Shown: one piece after another, positions 1 to 10,381 of the stretch
How the letters are laid out: each line of letters opens with the position of its first letter
Position numbering within the stretch: the first letter of the stretch is position 1
Assembly (NCBI GenBank): GCA_029252505.1
Contig: JAQXBH010000093.1
Span: forward strand, 526-64,525
DNA length: 64,000 bases
Direction: 5' to 3'
Source of the DNA: Opitutales bacterium
Lineage (GTDB): Bacteria; Verrucomicrobiota; Verrucomicrobiia; Opitutales; Seribacteraceae
Position numbers and translations under genes: made by a program
Notes under the pieces: model-generated
The model's database searches: none
Seen by the model: the letters and a program-made list of their open reading frames with translations, nothing else
What the model was told of the DNA's origin: nothing

Positions 1-3000
1 TAAGGTCCAGGATCGCTTGGATTTTGCCCCCAAAGTATATCTGCTTCCATCTCTTGGCCATCAGATAACATGACCTTAGCCTTTTGGAATGAAGGAGGAA
101 CTTCACCACCACTAGAAGAACCGAAAAAATATCTCCCAGGTTCAATAATTTTCAATCCAACGACTTCGCCTTCAGAATCAACAATAGCCTCCGCTTTTGC
201 ATCTATCCCCGAACTGCCTGCTGGTTGAATTCCAACAGTAGGACGATTTGAATTTTCGACCTTAAATTTAAAAACATGATTGAGTGGCTTTTCGACTTGC
301 AACCAAACATCGTTCGCAACTAATTGACCACTGATTGTAGGTACATTCACATCACTTGGAGTAACAAGTGGAAGATCGCCAGAAAGACTCGGGATATTCA
401 GGTAGTTATTAAAATTATTTTTTTGGCACTGAAAATACTTTCCTTCATGATAAACAATTTGGCCATAATCGTAAGAAAGGTTAGGAGTCCAATCGTCTCC
501 TTGCTGAGCAGAGCGTGGACCGCTAAGCGTTGTTGAACTACCGACTTTACTAAAATATGCACCCTCTTGAAGTGAATAATCAGGCAAGGTTTGAGATGTC
601 CAATTCGATGCAAAATTAGCGACAGTATTATCAGCAGGAGAAATATCAGTGGCAGTAGTATAATATTTACCATCTTTGTAAGCGTGATCACCTGCGCTAA
701 ATGCAAAACCTTCCTTCCATGTTGTTGCCTCAGTCCAGTTGGTCCCAAAATTTCCCAAAGTATTACTCTCAGCTGTAATTGAGGAATTAGCAAAATAAAG
801 TAATCCGTTCGCAGTCGACATTTCACCAGAAGAAACTGGTACACCAGTTACCCAGGATGCGGGCTTGGTTATATCTTGCTTCGCAATATAAAAATCGTTG
901 TTATCTGGATCGTAAATGTAGTCACCAGACTTTGCCTCAAGCTGTCTAGTAGCCGAATAAATAGGTTCCTTACCTTCAGTAGGTAAAGTATCGCCTAATA
1001 AGAAAACATTCCCATCAGAGCGCTCAGTCAATCCGACAACATTTAATGAAGTACCGCTAAAGTGAGTAGCTTGTATATTTGCATCTGTTAAGGAAAATGA
1101 AAAATCTGACTTAACTGCAAAGTATTTGTTGTTTGCGGAGTCATGAACATACTGACCTTTCTTGAGCTTTACCTGCTCAGGACCGTACCCTACATCAAGT
1201 AAACCGGAAGGTAAAAATACGGAAACCGGATTGGTTGTCGTGCTAACATCTTTGAAGTACTTGTTATTCGCGGGGTTGGCAATCGAGGCGTCTTTAGTTG
1301 CTTCATTTTCAACTGTTGTGGATACATTCAACGCAGATGTACCGAAATTCAAACTTGCTAGTTGCGAGGCGCTAGGAGGATTCGGGGGAGTACCTAATTC
1401 TAGCCAATTGGTAGCAAAGTTGGACTCAGTATTGTTAACAGAAGAAGCGTTGTTAATGGCTTCGTATAATTTACCTTGGTAAGTTGTGGTATCACCTTGG
1501 GAAACCGCTTCACCAGTTTTCCATTCGCCAAGGTGCTTTGATTTTATTTCGTAATAAATACCTTTTGCGTTTGCATCTACTCCATCCCAAACCACATCTC
1601 CCACAGCATACTCTTTTTTAGGGTCAAAAGTACCCCTCATAGAATCAGATGCAACCATAACAGAAGTTCCTTCAGGCGAAATGAAATTACCAGCGAGAAA
1701 CGGAGAGGAATTAAACTTCTCAAGGCTGGCAGGATCCTTTGGCATTGTTGTTGCCGTTGCGGTAGCCTGAGAAAGTACTGAGTTAATGTCTGCAGCTGTT
1801 AAGGAAATTTTCTCATTAGCCAAGTAATATTTATTATTAGTATCATCATGAAGATACTGACCTGCATTAATATCAAAACTTGTTGCCGAAGAAAGTTTTA
1901 GCACCGGTCCGTTGTATGTATGAACATTTCCCTGCGGAGGGAAGCTTTCAACTATATGCTCTAAGTTGGAAGGGTCGACCTGGGTGGAGTCTTGGACCAA
2001 GAAATACCTTCCTTCATGCAAAATTACATCATTGTTTTGAAATTTACCCGTAGATGAAAAGACTTGGCCATTTTCTTTTACAAAACTTCCCTTGATTACA
2101 GAACCACCTTCGGCGGCAGCAACAAGTTTGTATTCTAAAGTTTCTGGATCAAAAAATACCGCTGAATCACTTTCAGATGAATTAATTGAAAATTCGTTTA
2201 CAGGAACTGCAATTCGTTTAACAACATTAGCTAAATCTGTGGCAAGAGCAGCACCTGGGTTGCTAGATTGCTGATATTCTTGAATCTTGCTGGCCACAAG
2301 AATCGATTGCGCATGTGCATTGGCACTTGTAACATCAGCAAATAACTTTCCATCGGGAGTTGAGTAATAAAAGCGATTAGTAGTTCCTGTAACCTCCAAG
2401 TTCCAGTCTTCTCTTGGAACATCGTAACCCGAACCAATTTCCGTCCAATAATCAGTTCCACTGTTTACAGGGGAATGATTTACATTATCCGAACCAATTG
2501 ACTCGAAAAATCTTCCTTCATGTTCAACAATATCTCCCTGTTTGTAAATCGTCAAACGCCTCCAATTCTCCGTGTGCTCGACAGCCAAATTTGATGCGCC
2601 ACTAACTTGGGCAGAAGTAACCGTTAGGTCCCTACTCCAATCACTTCCTTTTACGGAAGAATCAACAATTGCTTTTTCTGACTGAGTAAGTTCCGAATAT
2701 TTGACACCAGGAAACCTAGACGCAGTTTCTATGTTTAACTTTTCTTCCAGTTGCTCAGGGAAATAGTAATTGGGATTCCATTTCGTGGTGTAAGAAGAAG
2801 ATGCTTGATAAGATTCTCCAACACTTCCATGGATGAGTAAATTGCCGTTTGCTGCAATTTCAGCATTAAGAGAAGCTTTTGTGTTTCTGAAAGAATCTGA
2901 AGTTGTTGAACCTCTCACGAATGCCTTATACTCTGAGGTTTCATAGGAAAGAGAATCCGAAACTAACTCAGAATCGTTGTTAATCAGATCTTTCAATCGC

Positions 3001-3614
3001 AGGGCAATGTTGTCGGTGCTTAGGCCTTTGATTTTAGATTGAACCACATACTCTCGACCGTTTAACGAAAAATTGACCACTTCACCCTGATCGATTCTTC
3101 TTTTTCCGTCGTTACCAAGAGTGCCCACTTCATTAAAGGTAAAGGTCTTCTGTTCGCGTTTACCAAGCAATATTTCGGAGTTACCATAATCAGGTTTTAA
3201 CTTGGTTCCTCCAAAAAGTGCCTGTTTTCGATGTGTCGAGTTGACTCGATTAAGTGCTTCCTCGATTAACTGATTGAGCTCAAAACCATAGGTTTCCATT
3301 GCTGGGCCATTAAGACTCGAACCGGCAGTTCTGGCAATTTCTTGACCCCGTTGATTGAGTTCACGCAGTTTATCTAAATTTAGATAACCCGCATCCAAAT
3401 ATTCCTTAGCGTAGGAAGCATTCCTTTGGTATTGGGTTAATTGACCCTTTTGAGTCTCCATTTGGATGACACGACCTAAACGCATCCCGTCGTCTTCTGG
3501 TAAAGTCAGTTTTTGCCCACTTGTGATTTGTGCATCAAGCTTAAATCTTTGTTGATCAAGTTCTTTTATCTTTTGGATAATCGAATTACTTGAACTTATA
3601 TTGGGCAACCTCAT
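1..3614 (-). CDS. flgL: Giant flagellar hook-associated protein 3 (FlgL) with CBM5/12-like repeats; 3' end lies outside the window (>1204 aa)
   Basis: Not in the ORF track because there is no stop in the window. Hand translation from ATG 3614 gives MRLPNISSSNSIIQKIKELDQQRFKLDAQITSGQKLTLPEDDGMR...NSTHRKQALFGGTK (flagellin/FlgL N-domain motifs Q-x-x-SG-x-K-x3-P-x-DD and LFGG). The frame is open in every segment checked down to position 1. It starts 3 bp after the flgK stop. Confidence 0.88.
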   Translation of the reverse strand, partial: MRLPNISSSNSIIQKIKELDQQRFKLDAQITSGQKLTLPEDDGMRLGRVIQMETQKGQLTQYQRNASYAKEYLDAGYLNLDKLRELNQRGQEIARTAGSSLNGPAMETYGFELNQLIEEALNRVNSTHRKQALFGGTKLKPDYGNSEILLGKREQKTFTFNEVGTLGNDGKRRIDQGEVVNFSLNGREYVVQSKIKGLSTDNIALRLKDLINNDSELVSDSLSYETSEYKAFVRGSTTSDSFRNTKASLNAEIAANGNLLIHGSVGESYQASSSYTTKWNPNYYFPEQLEEKLNIETASRFPGVKYSELTQSEKAIVDSSVKGSDWSRDLTVTSAQVSGASNLAVEHTENWRRLTIYKQGDIVEHEGRFFESIGSDNVNHSPVNSGTDYWTEIGSGYDVPREDWNLEVTGTTNRFYYSTPDGKLFADVTSANAHAQSILVASKIQEYQQSSNPGAALATDLANVVKRIAVPVNEFSINSSESDSAVFFDPETLEYKLVAAAEGGSVIKGSFVKENGQVFSSTGKFQNNDVILHEGRYFLVQDSTQVDPSNLEHIVESFPPQGNVHTYNGPVLKLSSATSFDINAGQYLHDDTNNKYYLANEKISLTAADINSVLSQATATATTMPKDPASLEKFNSSPFLAGNFISPEGTSVMVASDSMRGTFDPKKEYAVGDVVWDGVDANAKGIYYEIKSKHLGEWKTGEAVSQGDTTTYQGKLYEAINNASSVNNTESNFATNWLELGTPPNPPSASQLASLNFGTSALNVSTTVENEATKDASIANPANNKYFKDVSTTTNPVSVFLPSGLLDVGYGPEQVKLKKGQYVHDSANNKYFAVKSDFSFSLTDANIQATHFSGTSLNVVGLTERSDGNVFLLGDTLPTEGKEPIYSATRQLEAKSGDYIYDPDNNDFYIAKQDITKPASWVTGVPVSSGEMSTANGLLYFANSSITAESNTLGNFGTNWTEATTWKEGFAFSAGDHAYKDGKYYTTATDISPADNTVANFASNWTSQTLPDYSLQEGAYFSKVGSSTTLSGPRSAQQGDDWTPNLSYDYGQIVYHEGKYFQCQKNNFNNYLNIPSLSGDLPLVTPSDVNVPTISGQLVANDVWLQVEKPLNHVFKFKVENSNRPTVGIQPAGSSGIDAKAEAIVDSEGEVVGLKIIEPGRYFFGSSSGGEVPPSFQKAKVMLSDGQEMEADILWGQNPSDPGP
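600..719 (-). repeat. 40-aa CBM5/12-like repeat in FlgL (WKEGFAFSAGDHAYKDGKYYTTATDISPADNTVANFASNW)
   Basis: Hand translation; same W-to-W spacing and NT-x-x-NF-x-x-NW ending as the copies at 735-854 and 1404-1523. Confidence 0.75.
735..854 (-). repeat. 40-aa CBM5/12-like repeat in FlgL (WVTGVPVSSGEMSTANGLLYFANSSITAESNTLGNFGTNW)
   Basis: Hand translation; tandem with the copy at 600-719. Confidence 0.7.
1404..1523 (-). repeat. 40-aa CBM5/12-like repeat in FlgL (WKTGEAVSQGDTTTYQGKLYEAINNASSVNNTESNFATNW)
   Basis: Hand translation; W-x8-GD-x3-Y-x-G-x-x-Y-x-A pattern. Confidence 0.75.
2445..2564 (-). repeat. 40-aa CBM5/12-like repeat in FlgL (WRRLTIYKQGDIVEHEGRFFESIGSDNVNHSPVNSGTDYW)
   Basis: Best match to the ChtBD3/CBM5/12 consensus W-x5-Y-x2-GD-x-V-x-(Y/H)-x-G-x2-(Y/F)...N...P...W. 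Confidence 0.78.
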
Positions 3615-3617
3615 AAA

Positions 3618-6600
3618 TTATTTTAAAAGACCCATTACAACAAGTTCGAGCATTTTGTCGAGCGTATTTAACACTCTAGAAGAGGCCTGGAACGACCGTT
3701 GAAATTGCATAAGGTCAGCAACTTCTTCATCAATTGATACTGAGCTAACTGAATTTCTTTGTTCTAGCAATAATGTTTCAATCGTATTTTGATGATCTAT
3801 ATTATCACTCAAGTCGGAAAGCGAATTGCCTATATCCGCGTTGATATCAGATATATCTTTTGCAAATTCGTTATTACCTAGCTCTGCAATAGCAAGCGCA
3901 ATTTCATTGGAACCCTGATCAAAATCCGCACTCGCAACAATGCTGTCAGCACTGAGATTATTATCAACAATGAGGGAGCTAGCCAAATTCCAACTATTTT
4001 CAAGAACTGTATCGAAAGAAAAATTATCTCCCAATAAAAACTCACTATCACCCTGCTCTAACCTAAAGGGCACATTTTCATAAGCAAGCATAACGGAACG
4101 TCCATCATCAGCGGTACCAATTAGTAAATCTGCACCCGCATAGGTGGAATCAGTTTCCATGGTAACATTTTGCATCTTCTTAGCACTTCCATAAAATGTG
4201 TAAAGCGATCCTGAACTTGAATCCTCTAACTGGATCTGCCCTTCGGTAGTGTCGCGAATAATATATCCAGTCCCTTCGAATTGTTCTCTTAATTCAACTG
4301 GAATCACTGGAGTCGTACTCGTTACAGTAAATGTGTCGTTTTCAGCGTAAGCAAGTGTCATTGAAACTTCATTCCTAAACAACTTCATCTCTCCGTTACC
4401 CTCAACTCCATATAAACCAAACTCTTCCTCCATAATCACATTTCGACCCATGGTAGGTCGGGTCAAATTTGCTTCAAAGCCAAACAGATATTCTCCTGGA
4501 GCGTCCTGAGGGTTATAGATTCCGTTCACTTGTGTTACAAATTTAGAAACCAAATCATTGAGAGAAACTCTGAAATCTTCCAGCTCAACCTGACGGGAGT
4601 GTTGATACCCGTGTAAGGAACCAGATTTTAAATCAATCTCCAATCCATTAACAAATAAGGCATCAGTCGAGGGCAAGTCTTTGGATTGTTGAAGAATGTG
4701 AAAACTCTTAATTTCTCCATCTTGAATAATGGCTTCGGCGACTCCGATATTGAGTTCCTGTAATGAACCATTGGAGATATTTAATCCGCCTGGGTTTGCT
4801 TTTCGTAGGACAGAAGTAACCGGAAGTCCAGAATCAGCATCAGGAGTAAAAATATGAAAATTATTTTTCCAATTAGCGTCGTTGGGATTAAATGTATTAA
4901 TTTCTGCATCACCAACGATGGGGTTTGGTTTTGCTTTGACCAAAAAATGAGTACTAGATGTCTCATCATAATAAATTCCACCCGAGTTAAAATTCATTTG
5001 AAGCTCGGTAGCCTCAACTCCATTTGTAACAATAGTTACATTTTCTGGCAAAGACTGAACAGTGGATATAGTATCATCAACAAAGGAGTTTACCTTGATA
5101 AAGTTAGCGGAGGAATGTGGTAGCTCAGTTGTTGCCGCTGATACATTTGAAACTGCCATATAAAAATCTCCACCCGTACCAGAAGGTGCATTCGGATCTA
5201 TAAATGAAATAACCGAACCTGCTGTAAGGTCGTTTCCATCAGGCCATGACATATTTAATTCTTCAGATTTCTTGGGTAGCGTTGCCCCAAGAGTGACGAT
5301 TCCAGATTGATCAACAGTACCCGCAGTAGTTACTAAGGAAGAAATCTCAGTAGCTCTGGGAATCGTTTTCGTTGCTTGGTAGTAATTATTCTCAAAGAGA
5401 AAAACTTCACCATTAGAATAGTTCCTTGAACTGAGAGTAGCGTTAGTCAAAGGATCGACGACACCAACTTCATTCGATACTGGACCAACCCCGGTAGTTG
5501 CTTGATAGACTTTGCCCTCGTAATAAATCTGTTTACCCTTAGGGATAAAATCAACATCGGAAAAAGTTCTCTTGGTCTCAATTACAATCCCATTGGGTGG
5601 ATTTGAAATAGCCAAAAACCTCGATTCGTCTGTTAGCAAATCTCCCTTTTGTGTATCGACTAAAGCTTGATAGTAACTCTCCCCTTCATAAAAAACTTCT
5701 CCAATCTTTCGAGCAGCAGAAGAAGGATCAACTGGTATAGTACTCGCAATATCGCCCCCCGCCTGAGCGGCAATCTCATTGCCCGCGTCAACTGCTTGGT
5801 TTGCCATTTGAATAGCTGCGACCTGTTCATTTGCTGCGGCATTTTCCTCCTGATTAACCAGATCTGCTTTTTCTTGTACAACAAGAGGTTCGTTTGGCTT
5901 CGGAGGCAACAGACTCACTAAGAAAGGACCATCAGAATCGTTGTACTTAGAACCGCCCTTTAGAACTTCAAGTCTGCCTAACTGTCCATTGGAATCAATT
6001 TTGGCACGGACAACCGCTGCTGTACCGGCAGCATCCTGAGGACCCGCAATTGTAAACTCCTGCCCCCATTGATTAGTAAGAGACTTTGAACCTTTAGAAT
6101 CTAAAATATTAATCTTTTCATCATTTTTTCCTTCGATGAAAAGGTTTACAAAACCAGAGGGTTTACCAGTAGTCGCGGAAACATCATCTTCTTGAGTAAA
6201 ATTAATGTAACTTCCCAATTCCTCAAATAACTTTTGTCTTTGGTCCCGGTAGGAAACTGCTTTTCCTTGATCAAGGAGCTCAAAACGCCGAACTTGGGTA
6301 TTTGCTTCGTGGATTTGACCTAATAAAATATTAATTTTTTCAGTTGATCTTGTAATCACTTCTGAAACATCCTCTTCAATCTGCTCAAGGCTTTGCCCAG
6401 CCTCATTAAAGCGCTTGGTTAAGGTTTCAATCTTATGATAAAGTTCTTGTTTGATAGTCGGTTCATAAGGAGAAGCCGAAAGTTCCTGGAAGGTGTTAAA
6501 AAAATCGTTTAACGCACGGGTTAAACTACCGGGGGCTAAATCGCTGTCATGCAAATCATCCAGTCCAACATTAACTCCTTGACGATTAATTTTCTCTCCC

Positions 6601-6902
6601 AATGCAGCCTGTAACAATTGCAAAATTTCCTGCTGTGCAGCCAATGATTCGGAGTCCCCTTTTTCGTTAATAACCCGGGCATCTAAGATTTGATTCCTGG
6701 CATGATCGACTCCACCAGTCTCTAATCCGGATGAAAGCAGACCCCCAAACGAAGTATGCATGACTCCTTCTCGAGCCAAGACCCTTTGTCGTGCATAATT
6801 TTCGTCATTAACATGAGCTAAATTTTGACCCGCTACTTCTGCTGTTCTTGCATGATAGCGAAGAGCTTCCGAGCTTTTGCTTATTTCTCCAAGTAATCCC
6901 AC
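3618..6902 (-). CDS. flgK: Enlarged flagellar hook-associated protein 1 (FlgK), 1094 aa
   Basis: N-terminal GQNLAHVNDENYARQRV and C-terminal SVSSVSIDEEVADLMQFQRSFQASSRVLNTLDKML are FlgK motifs; lies between flgN and flgL. Confidence 0.93.
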   Translation of the reverse strand: MGLLGEISKSSEALRYHARTAEVAGQNLAHVNDENYARQRVLAREGVMHTSFGGLLSSGLETGGVDHARNQILDARVINEKGDSESLAAQQEILQLLQAALGEKINRQGVNVGLDDLHDSDLAPGSLTRALNDFFNTFQELSASPYEPTIKQELYHKIETLTKRFNEAGQSLEQIEEDVSEVITRSTEKINILLGQIHEANTQVRRFELLDQGKAVSYRDQRQKLFEELGSYINFTQEDDVSATTGKPSGFVNLFIEGKNDEKINILDSKGSKSLTNQWGQEFTIAGPQDAAGTAAVVRAKIDSNGQLGRLEVLKGGSKYNDSDGPFLVSLLPPKPNEPLVVQEKADLVNQEENAAANEQVAAIQMANQAVDAGNEIAAQAGGDIASTIPVDPSSAARKIGEVFYEGESYYQALVDTQKGDLLTDESRFLAISNPPNGIVIETKRTFSDVDFIPKGKQIYYEGKVYQATTGVGPVSNEVGVVDPLTNATLSSRNYSNGEVFLFENNYYQATKTIPRATEISSLVTTAGTVDQSGIVTLGATLPKKSEELNMSWPDGNDLTAGSVISFIDPNAPSGTGGDFYMAVSNVSAATTELPHSSANFIKVNSFVDDTISTVQSLPENVTIVTNGVEATELQMNFNSGGIYYDETSSTHFLVKAKPNPIVGDAEINTFNPNDANWKNNFHIFTPDADSGLPVTSVLRKANPGGLNISNGSLQELNIGVAEAIIQDGEIKSFHILQQSKDLPSTDALFVNGLEIDLKSGSLHGYQHSRQVELEDFRVSLNDLVSKFVTQVNGIYNPQDAPGEYLFGFEANLTRPTMGRNVIMEEEFGLYGVEGNGEMKLFRNEVSMTLAYAENDTFTVTSTTPVIPVELREQFEGTGYIIRDTTEGQIQLEDSSSGSLYTFYGSAKKMQNVTMETDSTYAGADLLIGTADDGRSVMLAYENVPFRLEQGDSEFLLGDNFSFDTVLENSWNLASSLIVDNNLSADSIVASADFDQGSNEIALAIAELGNNEFAKDISDINADIGNSLSDLSDNIDHQNTIETLLLEQRNSVSSVSIDEEVADLMQFQRSFQASSRVLNTLDKMLELVVMGLLK

Positions 6903-6915
6903 AATATTCTATTTG

Positions 6916-7446
6916 TTAAGCAGACTCGTTGAGGGAGGAGCGATTGGTAGAAGACAATCTCCTTATATCCCCAGTACGGTTGTAAGTTTTAGAATGAGAC
7001 TTCGGGTCTGTTACCGAGAGTAACTGATCAGTAACTTCGGAAAGACGAGCAAGAATTTTTTGATTTTGAGCAATCCTATGTCTAATTTGAGAAATAAGTT
7101 TATTGATTTCTTCAATTATGCTTTGAAACATGGGCTGTGTAACTACTGGAAAATGTTCTACCAATTGGTTTAAACTCGAATCACTGGGTTCGCCCATGGA
7201 GTTGGCAAGTGAGATAACAAATCCGTGTCTTCTTTTTTGAAGTATCTGACTTGCTTCCATTTGTGTTTGAACCGACTGATTGATTTCCATTAAACTTTCT
7301 GTACGACGATCAAGAATACTCTGCTGCTGTGCACTCAGTAGTCCCACCAAGCCACCATATTCCTGCAATTCATCTCTAAGTAAAGTGAGTAAATCTTCCC
7401 ATGTAAAGGTTAGATTCGAGTGAGGCTTTTGTGCAAGTTGAACCAT
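6916..7446 (-). CDS. flgN: Flagellar export chaperone FlgN
   Basis: Helical 176-aa protein (LLSAQQQSIL, AQNQKIL, TYNRTG) immediately upstream of flgK. Confidence 0.8.
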   Translation of the reverse strand: MVQLAQKPHSNLTFTWEDLLTLLRDELQEYGGLVGLLSAQQQSILDRRTESLMEINQSVQTQMEASQILQKRRHGFVISLANSMGEPSDSSLNQLVEHFPVVTQPMFQSIIEEINKLISQIRHRIAQNQKILARLSEVTDQLLSVTDPKSHSKTYNRTGDIRRLSSTNRSSLNESA

Positions 7447-7453
7447 TTCTATA

Positions 7454-7798
7454 TTATTTAATTTCTTTATCTACTGGTTCAGAGGAATCATCACTAGTCT
7501 GGAGTTGTTGCTGGAGAATAGTCGAAACTCCAAAACCACCACCGCTGGCAATACTTTCTGAAATCGCATCAGTGAAAAAATGGCGGTACATGCGGTGAGC
7601 CCCACCATCTTCATTAAAAACACCCTTAAACATTGGTTTGAGCGCTTCCTTTAAAAACTGTTTTACCAATACAGATTCAAATTGGTCACTCACTGCTGCT
7701 ACTTTCTGATTATGGGTGGTATTTTTGGAGTGTGCCATCTCCATAAGCATGGAAGAATCCATACCTACATACTGCTTACCAATATCTTGTGCTTCCAT
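7454..7798 (-). CDS. flgJ: FlgJ rod-binding protein (no muramidase domain)
   Basis: QFESVLVKQFLKEA...ESIASGGGFGVSTILQQQL rod-binding motif; follows flgI; 114 aa. Confidence 0.85.
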   Translation of the reverse strand: MEAQDIGKQYVGMDSSMLMEMAHSKNTTHNQKVAAVSDQFESVLVKQFLKEALKPMFKGVFNEDGGAHRMYRHFFTDAISESIASGGGFGVSTILQQQLQTSDDSSEPVDKEIK

Positions 7799-7800
7799 GA

Positions 7801-8916
7801 TTAATTAATGATGAGTTCCGCTTGCAACGCTCCAGCATTCTTGATGGATTGTAAAATTGATGTCATCTCCCTTGTAGTTAATCCGAGTTTATTCAATGCA
7901 GAAGCAAGCTCGTTCACGGTCGATGCTCCAGGTGGATCAAGTTCGTCAAGTGCTTCAAAACGACCAACCTCTTCTATTAATTCAGCATTTTCACCCTGTA
8001 AAATTGTGGTTGCCCCTTGCGAGAAGGGTAAGGGTTGACTTACTCCAGTAGTGGGATTCAAGAAAATTGTTACATTACTACTACTCACCGCGACAGGTGA
8101 GATACGAACGCTTTGAGTGGCAACGATTGTCCCGGTTCGTTCATTAATGATAACACGAGCAGGCACATCTGGTTTTACATCGATACCACCAACTGCAGCG
8201 AGGAAATTAGTTGTCTGTCCACGAAAATCAACCGGTAACTGGACATTTACTACTCCACCATCTACCGCCAGCGAAGTTCCGGGATAGTACTTATTGACCG
8301 CATCAGCGATCTTAACTGCCGTTAAAGCATCCGGTGATCGTAGTATGAGTTCAATCTCGTTGCCAGAATTTAAAATTTTACTTTCAATTTCTCTCTCCAC
8401 TAGTCCTCCATTGCTCACTATCCCAACTGTCGGGTGGTTAACTTGAACATTTGCACCTCCTCCACCACCTGCTGAAAGTCCTCCTATTGAAACTGCACCT
8501 TGTGCAACCGTGTACACATTTCCATCTGCACCGTATAATGGAGTTTGTAATAAAATTCCGCCCTGCAAAGAATCAGCATTACCGATCGATGATACTGTAA
8601 CATCCATACGGGATCCTTCTTTTGCAAAAGGACCAATATCGGCGGTGACCATAACGGCAGCAATATTTCGAGATTTGTCGGCTTTATCGGCACGAATACC
8701 CAAAGTTTCCAATGCATTTAAAATTCCAAGTTCAGTATATTCAATGCGGGAATCTCCCTGCCCCGAAAGTCCAGTAACAATACCATAACCATATAATTGG
8801 TTGCTTCGACTTCCCCGAACATCGGTTAGATCTTTTATACGAGCACCATAAACTGAAAAAGATGCCAATAAAACGAGGCAACTAAATAAGGACTTTATTG
8901 GTAGTGTAATTCTCAT
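7801..8916 (-). CDS. flgI: Flagellar P-ring protein FlgI
   Basis: ARIKDL, NQLYGYGIVTGLSGQGD, NIAAVMVTA, INERTGTIV, GALQAELII. Start moved to ATG 8916 (signal peptide) to avoid overlap with flgH. Confidence 0.97.
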   Translation of the reverse strand: MRITLPIKSLFSCLVLLASFSVYGARIKDLTDVRGSRSNQLYGYGIVTGLSGQGDSRIEYTELGILNALETLGIRADKADKSRNIAAVMVTADIGPFAKEGSRMDVTVSSIGNADSLQGGILLQTPLYGADGNVYTVAQGAVSIGGLSAGGGGGANVQVNHPTVGIVSNGGLVEREIESKILNSGNEIELILRSPDALTAVKIADAVNKYYPGTSLAVDGGVVNVQLPVDFRGQTTNFLAAVGGIDVKPDVPARVIINERTGTIVATQSVRISPVAVSSSNVTIFLNPTTGVSQPLPFSQGATTILQGENAELIEEVGRFEALDELDPPGASTVNELASALNKLGLTTREMTSILQSIKNAGALQAELIIN

Positions 8917-8920
8917 TTGT

Positions 8921-9550
8921 CTAGAATGGATTAACCACCGAAGCGATTTTCTGGTACCAACTCTCTTTCTGAGCATCGTTTAAACTCCCCTTCGATACAA
9001 ATTCGATTTGAGCATCAGCAATATATTGGGAGGAAACGATATTACGGTATCTTAAACCCTCCCGAAATCCTGCACCTATATCTTCTTGCCTGACCATTCC
9101 TTTTAACACTGCGTAGTAACTTTCTCCGGAAAATGTAACCATCCGAGCTCCCTCCAAAACAAGAACACCATTTGGTAAAACATCAATTACAACAACACTA
9201 ACCCGTCCCTTCAAGTCCTGAGTATTAGCAATAGACCCACCGCCTTTATTACTGCTTTTTGATTCAATTTCAGTTCCGGGCAGTCCGCCATTGTGGGTAC
9301 CCATTTTACTATTAGCAAAAAGAAATTGTTTAACGGCGTTCTCGACCTGAGATTGTCGGTTACGAACAGAATTTTGAGAGGCGGCAAGGGAGGAACTTTC
9401 TCCCACATCAATAGTAATTAAATCACCAACAGAAAAAGAGCGCTTGTCACCGTACAAACCTCTTTGGTTGTTAGTGCTCTTCATCCACAAAGAAACGCCA
9501 AAAGTAATATTAACGAGAATTAAAAAGAGAAATGTAATAAAAAACTTCAT
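8921..9550 (-). CDS. flgH: Flagellar L-ring protein FlgH
   Basis: LYGDKRSFSVGDLITI, VIDVLPNGVLVLEG, GMVRQEDI, C-terminal NPF. Confidence 0.95.
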   Translation of the reverse strand: MKFFITFLFLILVNITFGVSLWMKSTNNQRGLYGDKRSFSVGDLITIDVGESSSLAASQNSVRNRQSQVENAVKQFLFANSKMGTHNGGLPGTEIESKSSNKGGGSIANTQDLKGRVSVVVIDVLPNGVLVLEGARMVTFSGESYYAVLKGMVRQEDIGAGFREGLRYRNIVSSQYIADAQIEFVSKGSLNDAQKESWYQKIASVVNPF

Positions 9551-9553
9551 AAA

Positions 9554-10381
9554 TTATAGATGTACCTTAACGCTGTTTTCGTTGAGAACTTTTGCTTGGA
9601 ATTCTTTCTTAGATGAAAGATTTTTGACAGTAACATTGCCCCCTGATACTCCATCCTCGAGCGCCATTCCTTTCATCGTAACATAAATTCCATTCCCTGA
9701 GGCAAACACATCAACTATTTGACCTTTCTTGACCAAGGTAACTTTTGATAAAAAATTCCATTTGATGGGAGTGTTGGATTTTACATTCGATGCAAGTTGG
9801 TAACCCTTTAAGTTAGCATTGGCAGGTACAGTACCTGCATGTTTTTTCAAAATATCGACCGGTCTTTTGTCAAACTGATTAGAATTAAGACGGGCTCCTC
9901 GCTGCAAGGGTGACTTAGAAAAGAAAACATCAACAAAATGACCAATTCTTAAAGGTTCAGCAAAATCACCAACTAGATTACCCCTATCCCAGACACTAAA
10001 ACGAGTAAATGTACTGGAACAAAGTTGATCGGGCGAGCAATCAGAGATTTTGATCAAATAAGTAGAGCTGACCTTTATGGGAGTCCACTCTCTAGTTAAA
10101 AAAGCTACCACTCTTCCAGAAGCTTGGTACCGATGTGCAATGCTCTCCCCCAATCTCTGCTCCAAGATTTCACGGGATAAAGTAATTGTAGAAGGTGAAA
10201 TTACTGTATCCTCAGCGTAAGATCTTAGAGAAGCGGGTCTAGAAGAAATAAAGGCAGACGACTTGGTGTACACTTTTATTTGGCTTCCTGCTCTCGGTAA
10301 ATCAAGAGAATCAATAAATCTACTTACATCAGCAAGTAGAAAGCTGATTGGTAAAAATAGAAACAAAAATGAAAATCTCAT
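9554..10381 (-). CDS. flgA: P-ring formation chaperone FlgA
   Basis: Signal peptide, SAF-like region, LVKKGQIV...GMALEDG...VKNLSSKK. Confidence 0.92.
   Translation of the reverse strand: MRFSFLFLFLPISFLLADVSRFIDSLDLPRAGSQIKVYTKSSAFISSRPASLRSYAEDTVISPSTITLSREILEQRLGESIAHRYQASGRVVAFLTREWTPIKVSSTYLIKISDCSPDQLCSSTFTRFSVWDRGNLVGDFAEPLRIGHFVDVFFSKSPLQRGARLNSNQFDKRPVDILKKHAGTVPANANLKGYQLASNVKSNTPIKWNFLSKVTLVKKGQIVDVFASGNGIYVTMKGMALEDGVSGGNVTVKNLSSKKEFQAKVLNENSVKVHL

Follow-up and report, generated by a model that had tools for sequence, protein, structure and literature searches.

Why would a bacterium enlarge a junction protein of its flagellum to about four times the usual size and fill the added part with modules that resemble chitin-binding domains? 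The question is raised by a gene at the edge of a 64,000-nucleotide stretch of DNA (the window; positions 526 to 64,525 of contig JAQXBH010000093.1, assembly GCA_029252505.1) from an uncultured marine Opitutales bacterium of the family Seribacteraceae. On sequence evidence, the gene is a genuine flgL, which encodes HAP3, the hook-filament junction protein, and an insert of ~1,100 residues takes the place of its small outer domain. The insert is restricted to one Opitutales family. It carries modules whose assignment to the CBM5/12 fold, a small three-stranded β structure with a Trp/Tyr core, is safe because sequence and fold evidence agree, and which lack the aromatic surface with which such domains hold chitin. 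On balance we lean towards a mainly mechanical explanation, in which the insert and the co-expanded FlgK, FliD and giant flagellins would form a bulky outer layer round the junction.

Identity of the gene

The frame occupies window positions 3 to 3,614 on the minus strand (1,204 codons) and is the sole long frame between positions 1 and 3,614. The window begins at base 526 of its contig, which belongs to a metagenome-assembled genome (MAG) of 3.1 Mb in 291 contigs (87% complete, 3% contamination). On the whole contig the frame runs on for 175 further codons (contig positions 3-527), giving 1,379 residues with no stop, and breaks off only where the contig does. Among public homologues the closest (P0004; 94% identity, 1,397 residues, on a 118-kb contig) extends 20 residues past the last FlgL residue on our contig, to a C-terminal end ...YQAALQIGSQLLNTSLLNYL, so the gene is essentially complete, with a full length of about 1,399 residues and ~20 C-terminal residues off the contig. 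We place the start at an ATG at 3,614 (MRLPNISS), with a TTG at 3,608 as the alternative. This start is ambiguous, as a 94% identical homologue is annotated from a TTG two codons later (MPNISS), and the 3 nt between flgK and flgL show nothing that resembles a Shine-Dalgarno sequence.

The sequence-only reading, which saw only the first 1,204 codons, proposed a giant FlgL with a normal N-terminal domain and asked for a FlgL C-terminus downstream. Both are there. The NCBIfam FlgL model TIGR02550 matches residues 2-140 (model positions 1-141, E 2e-18) and residues 1259-1378 (model positions 264-366 of 387, E 2.9e-10), for a combined E of 2e-28, and Flagellin_N matches the N-terminus at 27.3 bits (cut-off 26.6). 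The total of 99.7 bits falls below the equivalog cut-off of 127.2 because the insert replaces model positions 142-263 and the last 21 positions (367-387) lie off the contig. Pfam Flagellin_C gave no match in the C-terminal 230 residues, where the NCBIfam FlgL model did match. A filament flagellin was considered as an alternative identity and rejected: flagellin models reach at best an E of 0.004, and the gene lies directly after flgK.

Gene order agrees with this identity. On the same strand, the upstream genes are flgF/flgG-flgA-flgH-flgI-flgJ (rod-binding)-flgN-flgK-flgL, and the flgK stop lies 3 nt ahead of the flgL ATG. The genes that the text needs are as follows.

3..3614, minus strand: flgL, residues 1-1204 of about 1,399 (TIGR02550 at both ends, gene order)
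3192..3614, minus strand: N-terminal D0/D1 helical region of FlgL, residues 1-141 (TIGR02550 E 2e-18, Flagellin_N)
3618..6902, minus strand: flgK, 1,094 residues, oversized, with three weak half-modules at residues 403-512
6916..7446, minus strand: flgN, chaperone of FlgK and FlgL (PF05130 E 2e-18)

In a relative with a longer contig (L013), fliW and then csrA follow flgL. Beyond flgL-fliW-csrA, the same relative (L013:11010-15337) carries genes for a DUF1015 protein, a GT28/epimerase-like protein, an unknown protein and a class-III aminotransferase, which together may serve in glycosylation of the flagellum. Metatranscriptome contigs (three marine runs of one study, at most two samples) contain flgL and flgK fragments at least 99% identical to those of the window, a hint of expression that is also compatible with DNA carry-over.

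Repeats in the insert

Four repeats of exactly 40 residues from Trp to Trp had been read from the DNA, and all four are present in the translation, at residues 351-390, 698-737, 921-960 and 966-1005. Trp pairs at exactly +39 number 4 where 0.15 are expected, and none of 20,000 shuffles reached 4. The units starting at 698, 921 and 966 share 33-45% pairwise identity, and the unit at 351 is 12-20% identical to these. Three partial copies had also been suggested, with unequal outcomes when a hidden Markov model (HMM) of the module was run on FlgL: the one at ~420-491 is a truncated copy (residues 1041-1070, independent E value (iE) 5e-15), that at ~2000-2042 is recovered weakly as a half copy (residues 524-547, iE 5e-4), and that at ~1580-1637 (residues 660-679) has no match to the HMM and is rejected.

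2445..2564, minus strand: CBM5/12-fold module 1, residues 351-390, the best conserved of the modules, its NVNHSP loop being near-invariant
1974..2045, minus strand: weak half-module, residues 524-547, central hairpin only
1825..1862, minus strand: hairpin motif GQYLHDDTNNKYY, residues 585-597, with sister copies at 1120-1157 and 890-926; predicted β-hairpins
1404..1523, minus strand: CBM5/12-fold module 2, residues 698-737, an exact Trp-to-Trp unit matched by the module HMM
735..854, minus strand: CBM5/12-fold module 3, residues 921-960, confidently modelled and superposing on 4ny2 (1.2 Å over 43 residues) and 1ed7 (1.9 Å over 40)
600..719, minus strand: CBM5/12-fold module 4, residues 966-1005, in tandem with module 3; Foldseek match to a Vibrio CBM12 pair
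405..494, minus strand: truncated module 5, residues 1041-1070, without the closing Trp (module HMM as above; PF02839 E 0.005)

The module consensus is W-x5-Y-x2-G-x2-V-x3-G-x2-Y-x8-N-x10-W. Across 85 homologous giant FlgLs the HMM finds 2-5 copies each, 261-266 modules altogether. A second repeat type, GQY(L/V)HD..NNKY / GDYIYDPDNNDFY, is present in the three places where it had been noticed (residues 585-597, 820-832 and 897-909). Both structure models predict these motifs as β-hairpins; their match to the module HMM is not significant (iE 0.2), and the idea that they are degenerate half-modules is unproven.

Fold of the modules

The proposed homology of the repeats to CBM5/12 holds at the level of both sequence and structure. 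Pfam CBM_5_12 (PF02839) matches FlgL at 27.8 bits (cut-off 26.2), with ~18 bits for each single module, and 37 of 55 family modules match it at E <0.01. A profile built from these 55 modules and searched against all PDB sequences retrieved the tandem CBM12 of Vibrio chitin oligosaccharide deacetylase (4nz1, E 4e-10; 3wx7, E 5e-9), the ChiA1 chitin-binding domain (1ed7, E 1.7e-6) and a Pyrococcus chitin-binding domain (2rts, E 2.5e-5).

Modelled with AlphaFold, residues 885-1100 give a predicted local distance difference test score (pLDDT) that exceeds 90 throughout modules 3 and 4. Foldseek places this pair on the Vibrio deacetylase's tandem CBM12 domains (probability 1.0) and one module on the CBM5 of Serratia ChiB at a root-mean-square deviation (rmsd) of 2.1-3.3 Å. 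In a search independent of Foldseek, covering 48,161 chains, the top list consists almost entirely of CBM5/12-type domains. The best row is 9rkv_M (Z 6.5, 1.4 Å over 44 residues, 27% identity), 4ny2 follows at Z 6.0 and 1.2 Å over 43, and further rows are 4tx8, 2d49, 1ed7, 4hmc, 8yug, 2rts, 1aiw and 6z40. Superpositions on CBM5/12 domains, 4ny2, 4tx8, 1ed7 and 8yug among them, give an rmsd of 1.2-2.0 Å over 40-44 residues at Z 4.4-6.5, a Z of 4-6 being the ceiling for a 44-residue domain, and the CBM5 domains 2d49, 4hmc, 2rts and 1aiw superpose at 2.0-2.3 Å. The FlgL modules share the 40-45-residue fold and the signature W-x5-Y-x2-G-x2-V-x3-G-x2-Y...W of CBM5 and CBM12 domains (4nz1, 3wx7, Bacillus circulans ChiA1 1ed7, Serratia marcescens ChiB). 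They differ from these in lacking the exposed aromatics that bind chitin and in their carrier, a type-III-exported axial flagellar protein rather than a secreted enzyme.

The structure that module 3 matches best, 9rkv, comes from the tail fibre of Agrobacterium phage 7-7-1, and the baseplate/receptor-binding complex of phage Milano (8fqc) is among the matches. Both phages are flagellotropic, that is, they bind flagella. Flagella and flagellum-binding phages may have traded the module, or the likeness may be coincidence. In these two phages, as in the Anabaena contractile injection system (7b5i/7b5h), the small module likewise sits inside a large extracellular fibrous assembly; the host proteins are different, and those modules too have no known sugar-binding role.

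Loss of the chitin-binding surface

Trp687 of ChiA1 is reportedly the pivotal chitin-binding residue. Judged by the pattern HT..(G/D)W(E/A)PS, its equivalent in 4nz1 is the Trp of the DWAP motif, which in the HMMER alignment falls on Pro/Asn of the module consensus. Over the 266 modules of the 85 homologues, the Trp687 site is aromatic in 0-1%.

In CBM5 domains, binding relies on two consecutive aromatics, Y-W or W-W, that are nearly invariant and on a third exposed aromatic, and the conserved aromatics Y265 and W299 of CjCBM5 belong to its hydrophobic core (PMC8449059). The site of the pair corresponds to the seven positions after the hairpin Tyr, where aromatics reach at most 3%. The canonical sugar-stacking aromatics (the Y/W-W pair, the third aromatic and Trp687) are thus missing in 266 of 266 modules, with Asn, Thr, Pro or Ser in their place. 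The module positions that are always aromatic, W3, Y9, Y22 and W41, correspond to the hydrophobic-core residues described for CBM5 (PMC8449059). Because these are retained while the binding-site aromatics are absent, the Trp-to-Trp spacing most plausibly reflects the core of the fold and not an exposed binding face. Of the earlier expectation of a CBM5/12 fold with exposed aromatics, the fold therefore stands and the aromatics do not.

The genome as a whole points the same way. Matches to Pfam CBM_5_12 occur in flagellar proteins only, all of them below the cut-off. The 3.1-Mb genome holds 81 sulfatase (PF00884) matches and, for GH18, a single partial match (51 bits, in a 343-residue frame), and so has the look of a genome specialised on sulfated polysaccharides, not on the degradation of chitin.

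Rest of the insert, conservation and distribution

A model of residues 130-1290 (1,161 residues) shows many small β-rich domains and a few helical pairs. In a fold search with this model, Campylobacter jejuni FlgL (9gsx_B) appeared besides CBM12 at a probability of 0.41, a hint only. Likenesses of the insert to teneurin, Rhs and β-propeller proteins were rejected at fold-search probabilities below 0.1. A complex prediction with three copies of residues 340-600, the most conserved part of the insert, scored 0.00, the fold of the partners being itself uncertain, and so speaks neither for nor against self-association of the insert.

Homologous giant FlgLs form 85 clusters of 774-1,491 residues. 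An exhaustive search with the insert only, against 1.84 billion representative proteins, returned 98 clusters, which are giant FlgLs or fragments of such proteins; none of the named homologues comes from outside Opitutae/Verrucomicrobia. The named relatives are 'Ca. Seribacter sulfatis' (99% identity over the available part) and uncultured Opitutales/Puniceicoccaceae MAGs. Of 13 genomes from the window's family, 11, spread over three genera, have the conserved insert segment. It was found in none of the 237 genomes from other Opitutales families, whose flagellated members have FlgLs of 301-321 residues. Within the genus, giant flgL is single-copy in all 14 high-quality genomes, with complete frames of 1,080-1,502 residues, and each other genus genome with a match has one frame only.

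Conservation along the protein is uneven. The mean frequency of the major residue is 0.90 in the N-terminal D0/D1 region, 0.74 in module 1 and 0.64 in modules 2-4, and invariant or near-invariant columns occur in residues 351-600, 865-901 and 1090-1250 across homologues that are ~50% identical overall.

Co-expanded flagellar proteins

FlgL is not the only enlarged protein. The neighbouring FlgK of 1,094 residues carries GxxVxYxGxxYQA hairpins at residues 403-512, which match the FlgL module HMM weakly (protein E 6e-7 in a four-sequence search) and leave the protein below threshold in the genome-wide search; both junction proteins are thus expanded with related pieces. The filament cap is a giant FliD of 1,559 residues (C47:834-5510) with FliD_N and FliD_C ends and two module HMM matches (E 4e-7). 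A second FliD-like frame, of 761 residues, lies on contig C147. The MAG also encodes flagellins of 828, 959 and 975 residues, one with a sub-threshold CBM_5_12 match, among ~27 Flagellin_C matches (contigs C88, C115, C124, C135, C147, C164, C242 and others), and other genomes of the genus have up to 39 FlgL/flagellin-type matches each. Five frames in the genome match the module HMM. Two are FlgL copies and one is a FlgK, on contig C268; the others are the giant FliD and a single giant flagellin.

The second FlgL copy belongs to a second flgK-flgL pair on C268, both genes on the plus strand: a FlgK of 1,724 residues (1342-6516) and a FlgL of at least 1,233 residues (6526-10224), open at the contig end. 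This FlgL is about 40-55% identical to that of the window. As all other genomes of the genus lack a second flgL of this kind, and the best relatives of this one are the 1,251-1,272-residue FlgLs of a sister genus, C268 was probably co-binned from another organism.

Relation to known systems

Cryo-electron microscopy (cryo-EM) shows 11 FlgL subunits as the distal layer of the junction with their D2 domains exposed, in line with the earlier assumption of about 11 copies with an exposed middle (PMC12221982). From these Salmonella and Campylobacter structures, the Opitutales FlgL would likewise be present in 11 copies. The D2 of C. jejuni FlgL (about 750 residues, 9gsx) is bulky, an enlarged exposed outer domain in the same 11-subunit layer; the Opitutales protein is almost twice as long, and its insert is a string of small domains with CBM5/12-fold modules among them.

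The second precedent is FlgK1 (HAP1) of the Rhodobacter sphaeroides Fla1 flagellum, a giant junction protein of 1,363 residues with conserved ends and a non-conserved middle, which produces a bulky HAP region by electron microscopy (PMC7277832). The ~860-residue middle arose from internal duplication. Deletions in it leave flagella that assemble and abolish swimming, which was interpreted as a need for this region in handling motor load (PMC7277832). There the enlarged protein is FlgK, with flagellin-IN motifs (PF07196); here it is FlgL, with CBM5/12 modules, and FlgK and FliD are enlarged as well. Giant flagellins of marine Gammaproteobacteria are a third case of axial proteins of >1,000 residues whose outer domains thicken the structure, and the Opitutales genome likewise has large flagellins, of 828-975 residues. 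The protein described here is a FlgL, however, and the giant-flagellin study explicitly filtered out FlgL (PMC6248924).

Given the bulky junctions of R. sphaeroides (PMC7277832) and C. jejuni (PMC12221982), the remark in the sequence-only reading that it knew of no description of such a junction is too strong. Bulky junctions and oversized FlgLs are already known themes. For a giant CBM5/12-bearing FlgL, we found no published description in the searchable literature, whose coverage leaves out most subscription journals.

What the enlarged junction may do

We infer a collar, and a mainly mechanical role for it, from these comparisons. The helices conserved at the N and C termini of FlgL would build the usual 11-subunit distal junction layer. 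The insert would display four complete CBM5/12-fold modules, one truncated and one weak half module among its many small β domains, each module keeping its core (Trp...Tyr...Gly...Gly-x-x-Tyr...Trp) without the canonical chitin-binding surface. Eleven copies of a ~120-kDa insert would amount to roughly 1.3 MDa, which with FlgK, FliD and the giant flagellins would most likely form a bulky outer layer round the junction, continuous with both a thick filament and an enlarged cap. By analogy with the giant FlgK of R. sphaeroides, this layer would serve mainly in load handling, and the modules would be sturdy building or contact blocks.

Several observations weigh against this explanation. First, the model of the insert has a pLDDT of 67 and a predicted template-modelling score (pTM) of 0.27, with no confident arrangement between domains, and the insert could equally be a set of flexible tentacles and not a compact collar. 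Second, the near-invariant N-x-N-H-x-P loop of module 1 sits where CBM5/12 domains bind sugar, and modules 2-4 have an invariant Asn and a frequent Phe there; this conserved polar/Phe loop could be a non-canonical ligand site. Third, CBM5/12-type modules in the genome are limited to exposed flagellar proteins, which fits surface recognition equally well.

The second and third of these points also support a collar of lectins, in which the modules would bind a glycan other than chitin, such as algal sulfated polysaccharides or glycans of the bacterium's own flagellum, through a polar/Phe surface, making the junction, and possibly cap and filament, a multivalent adhesin. We regard this, the main rival, as unlikely. 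In its favour, the CBM5/12 fold is genuine, the Asn, Phe and NxNHxP positions are kept in the very loop that forms the binding face of true CBMs, and the proteins that carry the modules (FlgL, FliD and one flagellin) are all exposed. The many sulfatases indicate a life on algal glycans, and the glycosyltransferase, epimerase-like and aminotransferase genes that follow the flagellar genes in a relative could supply flagellar glycans. However, every module lacks the sugar-stacking aromatics, and modules 2-4 are among the less conserved parts outside the core, where a conserved ligand site would predict otherwise. The same fold occurs in phage tail-fibre, tailspike and contractile-injection-system proteins with no demonstrated role in sugar binding, and 11 copies beside the cell surface make a poor site for an adhesin compared with the filament. 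Glycan binding by the FlgL modules is a minority reading, and a sugar-binding collar is unproven. In its boldest form, which we consider distinctly improbable, the modules of CBM5/12 origin that FlgL, FlgK, FliD and some flagellins carry would present a new, non-aromatic lectin surface for those same glycans, and the whole flagellum, with its dense 11-fold junction ring, would be the glycan-binding organ of attachment of a marine specialist on polysaccharides.

We give little credence to a third idea, that the insert is a fast-evolving surface coat that shields the axial core from flagellotropic phages, grazers and proteases, with the modules serving as robust, easily duplicated β units. Insert length and module number do vary between close lineages (2-5 modules, 774-1,502 residues), module surfaces are variable while cores are kept, and the genus has dozens of flagellin paralogues. 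Against this, the near-invariant columns in three segments of the insert argue for a specific, conserved function.

Attachment to chitin, as first proposed, fares poorly in the comparison with true binding domains. A collar whose modules hold chitin or chito-oligosaccharides in the manner of chitinase CBM5/12 domains would explain why the best sequence and fold matches are chitin-active proteins (the Vibrio chitin deacetylase, ChiA1, ChiB, ChiC and GbpA). The absence of the Y/W-W pair, the third aromatic (for their roles in CBM5, PMC8449059) and the Trp687 equivalent makes it very improbable, as do the lone partial GH18 match and the confinement of sub-cut-off CBM_5_12 matches to flagellar proteins in what looks like a sulfated-polysaccharide specialist. 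A mis-assembled or decaying gene, as might be suspected of a frame cut by a contig end in an incomplete MAG with some contamination and a second flgK-flgL pair elsewhere, is highly improbable given an uninterrupted frame of 1,379 residues, homologues of full length (77-94% identity) that independent samples yielded on contigs as long as 118 kb, and near-identical pieces in metatranscriptome contigs (three marine runs from a single study).

The junction between hook and filament is commonly seen as a small, invariant adaptor, and here one family of abundant marine polysaccharide degraders has enlarged its FlgL to 1,000-1,500 residues with a module borrowed from carbohydrate-binding proteins. 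If the collar is mechanical, it would extend the one tested case, the FlgK of Rhodobacter, to FlgL and to another phylum. If instead the modules bind glycan through a new surface, they would represent a new mode of flagellar adhesion to algal particles. In both cases, these proteins offer an example from nature of CBM5/12 modules that have lost the aromatic face used for binding.

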